Shown here piece after piece: positions 1 through 8,717 of a DNA stretch of 11,597 nt. Each line of letters starts with the position of its first letter. The stretch's first letter is position 1. The DNA lies in the IMG/VR virus record IMGVR_UViG_638341087_000009, positions 1-11,597 of that record, one strand, 5' to 3'. Source of the stretch: a virus. Lineage: Duplodnaviria; Heunggongvirae; Uroviricota; Caudoviricetes. A model generated the notes under the pieces. That model had not been told where the DNA came from, did not search any database, and saw nothing but the letters and a program-made list of their open reading frames with translations. The translations under genes were made by a program, and so were the position numbers.

Positions 1-478
1 ACAGAGAATCCACCCATAACACTGTTTTTGGTTTTAACTGTTCCGCGTGCGCTGAGCCGCATTCACCGCATCACAAAATTCACTTTAAAAAGGGCGGCAG
101 AGCAGCCACGGAGTAAAACTGATACCGCCAAACGTCACCAGAAAATTGATAACAGAGGGCGTTGCAGCGGGGTTGTCACTTAAGCGTATGGTCAACCTGA
201 CAACCCGGTGTCCTCAACGGGGAAGGAATAACCCCGCCATACTTACCGCCGCGCCATTTCGCGGAGTGCCACAACCGGAAGCGCACGGTCGACGAAAATT
301 TAACGACAGGCTATCTATGAACCAGCTACCTCGCCGTGCGCTTTCGCGTTATGGTCTGACTTTTCAGGGAAATATCCTTTCAGTAAACTGTCAGTGCCGG
401 ATGCTCACCCGTGTCCGGCGCACGTACTCCACCTCACCCGTGGAGAACTCCTTAATCACCAACCCTCAGGAGGGTGAA

Positions 479-754
479 ATGTCGACTGAAAATGATGAAA
501 TCATTAACTCCCTGATACGCCAAATTAATAATTTTGATAAAGCATTGCAGCATGCTGCGGCGCGTAGTGATATAACTCTTTTAGCAATTTCATTTCTTGC
601 ATCTGTTATGGATAAAAATGAAGTCGTACGACAGAGTCTTGTTGATTATATCGACTCGCTTCAACCCGGCACTTTCAATCATGAGAGCTTCAATCATGAG
701 AAAGAGCATGTTAAGTCTGTAATTAATTCTCTTATTTTGAATCAAAAGAATTAA
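479..754 (+). CDS. Hypothetical small protein (91 aa), AT-rich insert (moron-like) in the early-left region
   Basis: ATG at 479 preceded by AGGAGGG (466-472, 6-nt spacing). Visibly lower GC than flanks. In-frame 15-bp tandem duplication (674-686 / 689-701, encoding FNHES/FNHEK). The upstream part of the 146..754 track ORF is Arg/Pro-rich, GC-rich and has no SD, so the start was moved to 479. No family recognised. Confidence 0.5.
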   Translation: MSTENDEIINSLIRQINNFDKALQHAAARSDITLLAISFLASVMDKNEVVRQSLVDYIDSLQPGTFNHESFNHEKEHVKSVINSLILNQKN

Positions 755-1322: not shown

Positions 1323-1451
1323 TCAGCCGTTAGATTTTGCCGAGCTGGAAAGCGCCTGTTTAAACTCACTGAAGCTGAGAGCTTCTTCGCCTTCGGCAAG
1401 GCCTTCGAAGTATTCTTCGTAAGCCTTTTCCATGATTGTGTCGAAATCCAT
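1323..1451 (-). CDS. Small acidic protein (42 aa), not in the supplied ORF track
   Basis: Hand translation of the minus strand gives MDFDTIMEKAYEEYFEGLAEGEEALSFSEFKQALSSSAKSNG. AGGTGA lies 6 nt upstream; the start sits 1 nt after the stop of the upstream 80-aa gene. The two listed ORFs covering this interval (1247..1456 -, 1308..1505 +) look like frame shadows. Confidence 0.45.
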   Translation of the reverse strand: MDFDTIMEKAYEEYFEGLAEGEEALSFSEFKQALSSSAKSNG

Positions 1452-1452
1452 A

Positions 1453-1695
1453 TCACTCACCTGAGTTTCTTTCCAGCCAGCGACGGGCACCATTTTCGGT
1501 TTTAAACGTTTTGCTTTTGGTATACGTCATCGCGGTGAATGTGCCGTCCTGGTTGGGAAACACGCCGTACACCAGAGATTCATTGTTGCCAAGATCGATA
1601 GTATCCATGCTGACCTCATTTCCCCTTAACGCCGGGGTAGCGGAACTAAAAAACTGCTGCGCTGTTATATAAAGTGTTCCCGCCGTCATGTTCAT
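1453..1695 (-). CDS. Hypothetical protein (80 aa), first gene of the leftward early operon
   Basis: ORF with GAGGCG 4 nt upstream of ATG; sits about 85 nt downstream of the pL-like promoter. Not Arg-rich, so not obviously N-like. An internal Met would give a 50-aa product. Confidence 0.5.
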   Translation of the reverse strand: MNMTAGTLYITAQQFFSSATPALRGNEVSMDTIDLGNNESLVYGVFPNQDGTFTAMTYTKSKTFKTENGARRWLERNSGE

Positions 1696-1787
1696 ACGCC
1701 TCGGGCTGGCTACTTAACCCCTGACCACTGCCGGGTAACTCGAGGTATTGCCCTGCGTTCTGTGGGGCGGGGTGGGTTGGTGAGCGC

Positions 1788-1817
1788 ATCATAAAACACA
1801 TAAAATGTGTTAGTCAA
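1788..1817 (-). promoter_or_regulatory. pL-like sigma70 promoter for the leftward early operon
   Basis: Minus strand reads TTGACT (complement of 1812-1817), 18-bp spacer, TATGAT (complement of 1788-1793). Read directly from the sequence. Confidence 0.5.
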
Positions 1818-1831
1818 CACAAAAAAAGTGT
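1795..1831. promoter_or_regulatory. Two operator-like palindromes (ACACA-N5-TGTGT type) inside the pL-like promoter
   Basis: Site A 1795-1811 AACACA-TAAAA-TGTGTT, a perfect 17-bp palindrome in the promoter spacer. Site B 1817-1831 ACACA-AAAAA-AGTGT, overlapping the -35. Centres are 21 bp apart (two helical turns). The same motif recurs at 2849-2865. Confidence 0.5.
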
Positions 1832-1840
1832 GCGCAAGAA

Positions 1841-1872
1841 TAAAAAAACTCCCATTCAAGAGGTGATGGGAG
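1841..1872 (-). terminator. Intrinsic terminator ending the repressor/toxin-antitoxin transcript
   Basis: Stem 1849-1855 CTCCCAT / 1866-1872 ATGGGAG, followed on the minus strand by a 7-nt U tract (plus-strand A run 1842-1848). Immediately downstream of the ParE-like stop. Confidence 0.6.
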
Positions 1873-2789: not shown

Positions 2790-2796
2790 AGTAACA

Positions 2797-2869
2797 ATTC
2801 TACTCAAAAAACGAGTAATGCGCGACACACGAAAATCGGGTTTACATATACACATTTTTTGTGTAATCT
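2797..2869. promoter_or_regulatory. Immunity switch region: divergent promoters and operator palindromes
   Basis: Leftward -10 TAGAAT (complement of 2797-2802) with a poor -35. Rightward TTTACA (2841-2846) with a -10-like TGTAAT/TAATCT (2862-2869). Palindrome TACACA-TTTTT-TGTGTA at 2849-2865 has the same half-sites as the pL operators. A second, different palindrome TACTC-N7-GAGTA sits at 2801-2817. Confidence 0.5.
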
Positions 2870-2895: not shown

Positions 2896-3168
2896 ATGAA
2901 TGATCATGTTAAGAAAAGGGTCGCGGGAAAATTTTCACAACGAGAACTGGCTATGTTAATGAGCACGAAACAACAAAGCGTATCTCGTTGGTTCAACTCT
3001 AAGTTCCCTGCATCAAGGGTGCTTCACTTGTGTCAATTGATGCAGTGGGAGGTTACTCCACACGAACTCCGACCAGACATTTACCCTAACCCAACCGACG
3101 GTTTACCCGTTGGATGTAAGGCTAACACATCAAATGCACCGGAGTTGATTCATGAAAATCAAGCATGA
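2896..3168 (+). CDS. ydaS: YdaS-like Cro/HTH protein (90 aa)
   Basis: GGAGG (2883-2887) 8 nt before ATG 2896. HTH-like ...FSQRELAMLMSTKQQSVSRW.... Divergent from the repressor, as in the Rac racR-ydaS-ydaT arrangement. The track ORF from 2818 is an upstream extension through the operator region. Confidence 0.7.
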   Translation: MNDHVKKRVAGKFSQRELAMLMSTKQQSVSRWFNSKFPASRVLHLCQLMQWEVTPHELRPDIYPNPTDGLPVGCKANTSNAPELIHENQA

Positions 3169-3577
3169 ACACATCCGCATGGCGATGAATGCCTGGGCGC
3201 ATCCGGACGGCGAGAAAGTACCGGCTGCGAAAATTACCAAAGCGTATTTCGAACTGGGTATGACGTTCCCGGAACTGTATGACGACAGCCATCCGGAAGC
3301 CCTGGCTCGCAATACCCAGAAAATTTTCCGCTGGGTAGAGAAAGACACTCCTGATGCGGTTAAAAAAATTCAGGCGTTGTTACCAGCTATCGAAAAAGCA
3401 ATGCCACCTCTGCTGGTGGCCCGAATGCGCAGCCATAGCTCAGCCTATTTTCGGGAACTGGTGGAGACGCGGGAACGACTGGTGAGAGACGCTGATGATT
3501 TTGTCGCAGTGGCGATCGCTGGTTTCAACCAGATGAATCGTGGTGGCCCTGCAGGAAATATTGTGGCTGTGCATTGA
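3152..3577 (+). CDS. ydaT: YdaT-like protein (141 aa)
   Basis: ATG 3152 with GGAG 7 nt upstream; overlaps the ydaS 3' end by 17 nt. Sequence MKIKHEHIRMAMNAWAHPDGEKVPAAKITKAYFELGMTF... and the synteny recall Rac prophage YdaT. Confidence 0.7.
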   Translation: MKIKHEHIRMAMNAWAHPDGEKVPAAKITKAYFELGMTFPELYDDSHPEALARNTQKIFRWVEKDTPDAVKKIQALLPAIEKAMPPLLVARMRSHSSAYFRELVETRERLVRDADDFVAVAIAGFNQMNRGGPAGNIVAVH

Positions 3578-8386: not shown

Positions 8387-8440
8387 TGCTGCGGGCGCTT
8401 GAGGCTGTCTGCCTCGGGCATGCCACCGTAAGGCAGACAG

Positions 8441-8512
8441 AGAAAAGCCCCAGTTAACATTACGCGTCCGGCAAGACGCTTAACATTAATCTGAGGCCAT
8501 ATCTATGCTCTA
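8441..8512 (-). ncRNA. Candidate Sok-like antisense RNA (about 70 nt)
   Basis: Weak minus-strand promoter (TTGCCT, complement of 8543-8548; 17-bp spacer; TAACCT, complement of 8520-8525). Transcript would be antisense to the mok-frame SD and ATG (8493-8507). It would end in a minus-strand hairpin (arms 8491-8497 / 8447-8453, inner stem 8464-8468 / 8475-8479) followed by UUUUCU. Structure-based inference only. Confidence 0.3.
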
Positions 8513-8561
8513 CACACGTAGGTTAGCCTCTTACGTGCCGAAAGGCAAGGAGAAGCAGGCT

Positions 8562-8717
8562 ATGAAGCAGCAAAAGGCGATGCTAATCGCCCTGATCGTC
8601 ATCTGTTTAACCGTCATAGTGACGGCACTGGTAACGAGGAAAGACCTCTGCGAGGTACGAATCCGAACCGGCCAGACGGAGGTCGCTGTCTTCACAGCTT
8701 ACGAACCTGAGGAGTAA
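8562..8717 (+). CDS. hokD: Hok/Gef-family type I toxin (51 aa), closest to HokD/RelF; in-frame Mok-like extension from ATG 8505
   Basis: MKQQKAMLIALIVICLTVIVTALVTRKDLCEVRIRTGQTEVAVFTAYEPEE is the Hok family signature (transmembrane helix plus ...TRK.LCE..IR.G..EVAAF.AYE). AAGGAG (8547-8552) lies 9 nt before ATG 8562. The upstream in-frame ATG 8505 with its own GAGG gives a 70-aa form, as in chromosomal mok genes. Confidence 0.85.
   Translation: MKQQKAMLIALIVICLTVIVTALVTRKDLCEVRIRTGQTEVAVFTAYEPEE

Follow-up and report, generated by a model that had tools for sequence, protein, structure and literature searches.

Genes and features around the leftward promoter

The window, by which is meant the whole 11.6-kb stretch of DNA analysed here, the immunity region of a lambda-like prophage, carries on the minus strand at 1788-1817 a promoter composed of a -35 element TTGACT (1817-1812), an 18-bp spacer and a -10 element TATGAT (1793-1788). 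The near-consensus promoter TTGACT-N18-TATGAT of the original prediction is thus present, scoring 10/12 in a consensus scan, and it is the sole strong sigma-70 match near the site; the same scan, covering 1400-1900, found no other promoter. It is referred to as pL, the equivalent of dicBp, and its position is that of the tested PL933P fragment of prophage CP-933P. Both of its elements are kept in the related loci L001, L022 and L025, and its transcription start would lie near 1781. From there an untranslated leader of about 173 nt (1609-1781, minus strand) would lead into the leftward genes. The leader is conserved across prophages of different immunity, better so than the neighbouring genes, and the leader region matches DNA in 4,393 of 5,426 E. 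coli genomes. A search for structured RNA in the leader gave no excess stability (folding of 1606-1782, minus strand, z = +0.97) and no Rfam match. The 5' end of the leader is C-rich and G-poor (CACCAACCCACCCCGCCCCACAG) and might serve as a Rho loading site.

The first gene of the leftward operon is ydfA-like (1453-1608, minus strand; Pfam DUF1391, E = 1.7e-28) and is followed by a ydfB-like gene (1323-1451, minus strand), the names being those given by RefSeq to the homologous genes in L001 (ydfA, ydfB). An ATG at 1695 on the minus strand is in frame with ydfA and would lengthen its product from 51 to 80 residues (1609-1695); in K-12-type Rac the equivalent stretch closes after about 20 codons, so that the longer form is probably spurious. 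The operon has at its distal end the DicF small RNA (92-143, minus strand; Rfam RF00039, 75 bits vs a gathering score of 48). Because ydfA, ydfB and DicF lie downstream of pL, the predicted leftward operon is the counterpart of the dicBF operon of Qin. On the opposite strand inside this operon, between DicF and the genes on the ydfA side, there is an open reading frame of 202 codons (146-754, plus strand), for which no Pfam or PHROG match was found and whose position recalls that of the sieB-type exclusion genes in Rac.

Upstream of pL, and likewise on the minus strand, are a ParE-family toxin gene (1884-2171; Pfam ParE_toxin, E = 2.2e-17), a PaaA2-family antitoxin gene (2171-2362; Pfam PaaA2, E = 1.7e-22) and the gene for a prophage repressor of 132 residues (2391-2789; Pfam HTH_3, E = 5e-10). 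A predicted intrinsic terminator at 1846-1872 (minus strand) ends this repressor-antitoxin-toxin operon just upstream of OL2, the second of the left operator sites described below; it consists of a hairpin at 1853-1872, with arms CTCCCAT and ATGGGAG, and then seven T at 1846-1852, folds at -10.5 kcal/mol (z = -2.4), and in relatives keeps its stem while its loop changes. Rightward of the repressor gene, on the plus strand, are the genes for a Cro-like YdaS of 90 residues (2896-3168, with its ATG at 2896; Pfam YdaS_toxin, E = 2.2e-10) and a CII-like YdaT (3152-3577; Pfam YdaT_toxin, E = 1.1e-9). The features around pL were as the original prediction described them, but that description lacked the terminator at 1846-1872, the toxin-antitoxin cassette, DicF and two of the right operators, OR2 and OR3. 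Elsewhere in the window, a sok antisense RNA (8393-8567, plus strand; Rfam RF01794, 114 bits) indicates a toxin-antitoxin locus of the hok/sok type.

Predicted operator sites at the left and right promoters

Two inverted repeats of the form ACAC-N7-GTGT stand at pL. The first, OL1, has its core at 1796-1810 within the pL spacer and belongs to a 17-mer, AACACATAAAATGTGTT, at 1795-1811 (centre 1803). This 17-mer, AACACA-TAAAA-TGTGTT, had been described as a perfect 17-bp palindrome; its 6-bp arms are perfectly complementary and do form a perfect inverted repeat, but the 5-bp centre is not self-complementary. The second, OL2 (ACACAAAAAAAGTGT, 1817-1831, centre 1824), is located at the upstream edge of the pL -35, with which it has one base in common (1817), and departs from ACACA-N5-TGTGT by one mismatch and from ACAC-N7-GTGT by none, in agreement with the earlier claim of a second, related site over the -35 at a distance of 21 bp from the centre of the first. 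This distance corresponds to two helix turns, and both sites, which lie on either side of the contacts of the polymerase, have an A/T-rich centre. A search for a third left operator gave no match 21-25 bp upstream of OL2, a space that is occupied by the T-run of the terminator; two left sites are visible here, as against three in lambda, Qin and CP-933P.

The motif recurs, as had been foreseen, at 2849-2865 in the ydaS promoter (TACACA-TTTTT-TGTGTA, centre 2857). A motif scan of the 11.6-kb window returned exactly three matches to ACAC-N7-GTGT (1796-1810, 1817-1831 and 2850-2864), all of them within the two promoters and far above chance, with 0.10 matches expected and none of 200 shuffles holding three or more. 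When ACACA-N5-TGTGT was searched for with up to one mismatch, the window held four matches against 0.34 expected (0/200 shuffles), and the same motif family was recovered by an unbiased repeat search (repeats D1, D8 and I3-I5).

The immunity switch, where the original prediction had placed a single matching site, holds three, contained in the 106-bp intergenic gap between the repressor gene and ydaS (2790-2895) and centred at 2857, 2834 and 2809, that is, with spacings of 23 and 25 bp. OR1 (2850-2864) is the ACAC-N7-GTGT copy in the spacer of the ydaS promoter, within the 17-mer at 2849-2865, and is kept in L001, L022, L025 and L030. OR2 (2827-2841) lies between the -35 elements of the promoters PRM and PR and is a weak match in the window (ACAC-N7-GGGT), which reads ACTC-N7-GTGT in relatives. 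OR3 (2802-2816, ACTC-N7-GAGT), with its 17-mer TACTCAAAAAACGAGTA at 2801-2817, lies in the spacer of the putative PRM; it corresponds to D1 and I4 of the repeat search and is kept in L001, L022 and L025, and partly in L030.

PR, the promoter of ydaS-ydaT (2841-2869, plus strand), was read from the sequence as TTTACA (2841-2846), a 17-bp spacer and TAATCT (2864-2869); it scores 8/12, which is under the threshold of the scan, so it was not called, and its position is kept in relatives, with a -10 of TAACCT in L001 and L022 and of TATACT in L030. PRM (2790-2825, minus strand), read in the same manner, would have a -10 TAGAAT at 2802-2797 and a poor -35 at 2825-2820. Because this -10 ends only 7 nt before the repressor ATG (2789), a geometry that is identical in L030 with TAAAAT, the repressor mRNA is probably leaderless; a leaderless paaR2 mRNA has been demonstrated in CP-933P (PMC8630535). 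Further to the right, a perfect copy of the published box for the CII-like YdaT, TTGATT-N6-AATCAA, is found at 3145-3162, at the junction of ydaS and ydaT, where it covers the end of the one and the start of the other; this is the only exact match in the window and fits a PRE-like reverse promoter, as in Rac and CP-933P.

The repressor and its predicted sites across prophages

The repressor consists of an N-terminal helix-turn-helix (HTH) domain and a C-terminal domain of the PaaR2/DicA type. Its C-terminal 55 residues are 53% identical to PaaR2 (E = 4e-18), whereas the N-terminal DNA-binding part is without similarity to it, and among relatives the N-terminal half is variable and the C-terminal half kept. 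The NCBIfam DicA model NF007257 matches the repressor over its full length (E = 5.7e-16) with 58.6 bits, below the curated cut-off of 101, and by this NCBI threshold the protein is a relative of DicA and not a member of the DicA family. Among solved structures the only matches were weak ones to the HTH of P22 C2 (structure search, E about 8e-4), and a search by sequence turned up no entry for PaaR2. The repressor had originally been taken to be RacR-like. This identity was rejected, as BLASTP against RacR gave E = 1.0, the NCBIfam RacR model NF049929 did not match (the RacR of L008, a positive case, reaches 244.6 bits) and the RacR operator TAGGC-n3-GCCTA is absent from the window even when one mismatch is allowed; the predicted repressor at the head of this paaR-paaA-parE operon is DicA/PaaR2-like instead.

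The recognition helix of the repressor reads SQQTVQRW and that of YdaS KQQSVSRW, the HTH of YdaS being 50% identical to that of the repressor over 20 residues. The helix motif QQxVxRW, common to both, is expected if both proteins read the same sites, and the operator sites of the repressor most likely serve the Cro-like YdaS as well. In the repressor and Cro of phage 434, a Gln-Gln pair reads the outer ACA of the operators, which would fit an ACAC half-site.

The relation between OL and OR was followed across 11 prophages of different immunity, in which uniformly defined 60-nt OL segments were assigned by their best 15-mer match to the ORs, ties with the OR of another prophage being counted as own. 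The own OR was the best match of the OL in 11 of 11 prophages, and the observed total was reached in none of 200,000 permutations. A first, crude OL-versus-OR matrix had shown some cross-matches arising from common A/T-rich centres and the ACAC half-site, and was redone with the 60-nt segments. When the window is compared with L002, L003 and L021 (CP-933P), the leader is 86-95% identical, against 45-48% for the 64-bp pL/OL patch; identity is 61-83% in the toxin-antitoxin genes, 52-82% in the C-terminal half of the repressor, 42-56% in its N-terminal half and 38-52% in the OR region. The N-terminal half of YdaS diverges too, along with OR and the N-terminal half of the repressor. Two separated patches, namely OL on the one side and OR with the DNA-binding half of the repressor on the other, change together. 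As OL and OR do so across immunity types, the sites of a repressor can be read directly from genome comparisons.

Within the immunity type of the window, 12 of 5,426 complete E. coli genomes carry the OL patch, and exactly these 12 carry the OR patch, a co-occurrence that rests on few independent lineages because 10 of the 12 carriers are near-identical isolates. Among these 12 carriers the OL patch is 89-97% and the OR patch 96-100% conserved. At five same-immunity loci, the relatives L001, L022, L025 and L030 among them, the ACAC/GTGT arms of OL1 and OL2 are invariant and the centres vary. L030 is an independent, divergent case. Its repressor is 72% identical and has the same recognition helix, its leftward genes are different and the toxin-antitoxin cassette is missing; its leftward promoter, TTGACA-16-TAAACT, has the motif between the -35 and the -10 and a further copy upstream, the two sites being 29 bp apart. 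Sequenced phages offered one weak match only (phage Evi, 68% identity, in part of the repressor/toxin region), and for this reason the immunity type of the window is, as judged by sequence similarity, absent from the phage collection.

The commonest related immunity (type B: L002, L026-L040) has operators TAAC-N7-GTGT, which have one half-site and an A/T-rich centre in common with the ACAC-N7-GTGT of the window, and the recognition helices of the window and of type B are a few residues apart (SQQTVQRW vs AQQSVQKW). It is possible that this likeness represents a route by which specificity may evolve, or that it allows weak cross-recognition.

Proposed repression of the early operons and comparison with known systems

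We consider positions 1788-1831 to be, with a probability of about 0.88, the leftward early promoter and left operator of a lambda-like prophage in which one repressor would silence both early operons. The arrangement first proposed, with one prophage repressor acting on both early operons as at OL and OR of lambda, is upheld by the covariation of OL and OR in 11 prophages, the joint inheritance of the two patches, the conserved arms and the tested promoter of CP-933P, with the repressor presumed to bind at the sites. In the mechanism that we infer, transcription from pL would run on the minus strand across the leader (about 173 nt) and then through ydfA, ydfB and other genes as far as DicF. 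Dimers of the repressor, encoded 0.6 kb away (2391-2789), would bind OL1 and OL2, probably cooperatively and on the same face of the helix, using an HTH of the 434/P22-C2 type and a C-terminal oligomerisation domain of the PaaR2/DicA type, and would exclude RNA polymerase from pL. The same repressor would bind OR1, OR2 and OR3, between its own promoter and that of ydaS-ydaT, where, sitting on OR1 and OR2, it would close PR and might stimulate the promoter of its own gene; with the same repressor on OL and OR, one protein would thus silence both early operons. YdaS would use the same sites in the opposite state, after the switch flips. Looping of the DNA from OL to OR, over about 1 kb and via a higher-order oligomer of the repressor, is plausible.

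In an alternate scenario the sites would serve the Cro-like YdaS alone, the maintenance repressor would not act on them, and pL would be turned down only post-switch. In its favour, the recognition helix of YdaS is similar to that of the repressor, and in CP-933P PL933P is repressed to an equal degree by YdaS and by PaaR2, about 100-fold in each case (PMC8630535). However, these same data show repression of the equivalent promoter by the maintenance repressor itself, as do those from Qin, where DicA represses dicBp, which drives ydfABC-dicF-dicB, and deletion of dicA raises dicBp activity 22-fold (PMC10448788). An unrepressed pL would moreover express toxic division inhibitors of the DicF/DicB type in the lysogen, and it is the variable N-terminal half of the repressor that changes together with OL, so sole use of the sites by YdaS is regarded as very unlikely. 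It is also highly improbable that the stretch is merely a decayed or chance A/T-rich, promoter-like sequence of a cryptic prophage, whose leftward genes would be silent or would depend on a promoter elsewhere. Such prophages are often defective, the present one may be cryptic and its promoter decaying, its OL patch being less conserved than its OR patch among the 12 carriers, and promoter-like matches in the region number 2 against 2.7 expected in shuffles, which is no excess; however, the excess of the motif, the invariant arms, the covariation of OL and OR and the tested promoter of CP-933P argue for selection on the sites, and the scan of 1400-1900 yielded no promoter that could stand in for pL. 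That a host regulator recognises the inverted repeats, CRP for instance at the junction TGTGT-N6-ACACA (1806-1821) centred on the -35, can scarcely be credited, for although TGTGT-TAGTCA-ACACA is two positions off the CRP core TGTGA-N6-TCACA, core matches with two mismatches number 7 against 5.05 expected and show no excess over chance, the junction geometry is lost in L030 (sites 29 bp apart) whereas the ACAC-N7-GTGT sites are kept, and a site for a host factor would not vary with prophage immunity type, as OL does; the CRP-like candidate was rejected on the first two of these grounds.

With repression of both early operons by the one repressor as the preferred reading, the window provides a regulatory map of the prophage, comprising pL, OL1-2, OR1-3, PR and PRM, and a predicted 15-bp operator, ACAC-N7-GTGT, for a repressor type without a published binding site, for which PaaR2 of CP-933P and DicA of Qin are the relevant tested relatives. 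The operator also helps to predict the expression of the DicF/DicB-type cell-division inhibitors that pL would control and that are toxic when derepressed. It is conceivable, though unlikely, that the locus represents a rare two-left-operator immunity and that the repressors of co-resident prophages partly cross-regulate dicBp-type promoters via the GTGT half-site common with the commoner L002 type (TAAC-N7-GTGT), or that the very conserved C-rich leader, and not the operators, carries an undescribed control of the operon; if true, cross-regulation would join the DicF/DicB division-inhibitor operons, several to a cell, in a network.

In CP-933P, a cryptic prophage of E. coli O157:H7, PL933P lies beyond parE2, and its operators resemble those of PR and PRM; the same study cites an octameric PaaR2 (Jurenas et al. 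2021, PMC8630535). When the published PL933P primers were mapped onto an O157:H7 genome (CP-933P = L021), the cloned fragment was found to adjoin the same leader boundary, GGGTTGGT, as the pL of the window and to have the same TTGACT -35. The two prophages are alike in gene order (pL, terminator, parE, paaA, repressor, OR, ydaS, ydaT), with an operon of regulator, PaaA and ParE and with YdaS and YdaT on the rightward arm; they have homologous C-terminal domains of the repressor (53% over 55 residues), and a leaderless repressor mRNA is probable in the window too. However, the N-terminal DNA-binding domain of the repressor is unrelated, the operators of CP-933P are GTTTAGTAA-type repeats and those of the window ACAC-N7-GTGT, there are three left sites in CP-933P and two in the window, and OR and OL of CP-933P are 38% and 48% identical to those of the window. 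Because the DNA-binding domains of the repressors and the operator sequences differ, the window and CP-933P are of different immunity.

Qin of E. coli K-12 (PMC10448788, PMC3441716) has a homologous operon, ydfA, ydfB ... dicF, under the promoter, and a repressor that is likewise short and without a RecA cleavage site, the DicA model being the best NCBIfam match of the window's repressor. In Qin-type loci, too, one operator falls between the -35 and the -10 and another lies upstream of the -35, but their operators read TGTTAG-N6-CTAACA, their leader is short and their repressor gene is not separated from the promoter by a toxin-antitoxin cassette. With lambda the window has in common the divergent repressor and cro genes, three right operators (23-25 bp apart in the window) that overlap PR and PRM, and a second leftward promoter that carries the same operators and lies beyond accessory genes co-transcribed with the repressor; a further likeness is that PaaR2, the homologue of the window's repressor, forms octamers. 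In contrast to lambda, the repressor of the window is without a LexA-like self-cleaving C-terminal domain, there are two left sites where lambda has three, and the distance between OL and OR is about 1.0 kb and not 2.4 kb; an N gene or nut site as in lambda was not recognised in the window.

Rac of E. coli K-12, with RacR and YdaS (PMC9638921), resembles the window in its ydaS-ydaT arm and has a pL leader homologous to that of the window, and its pL bears copies of its own operator (L008). It differs in that RacR is unrelated, having 158 residues and two helix-turn-helix domains, and in that the operator is TAGGC-n3-GCCTA. The leftward promoter of Rac, TTGACA-17-TATAGT (L008 4637-4696), holds RacR-type operators (TTAGGC-n3-GCCTA-like) in three copies, located in the spacer, overlapping the -35 and upstream of it; PMC9638921 describes only the RacR sites between racR and ydaS. 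The layout of the window is a different-immunity variant of the architecture known from lambda, Qin and CP-933P, in the last two of which repression has been shown experimentally; what is new here is confined to the predicted operator sequence, ACAC-N7-GTGT, and a left operator of two sites, and the current understanding of lambdoid switches is unchanged.
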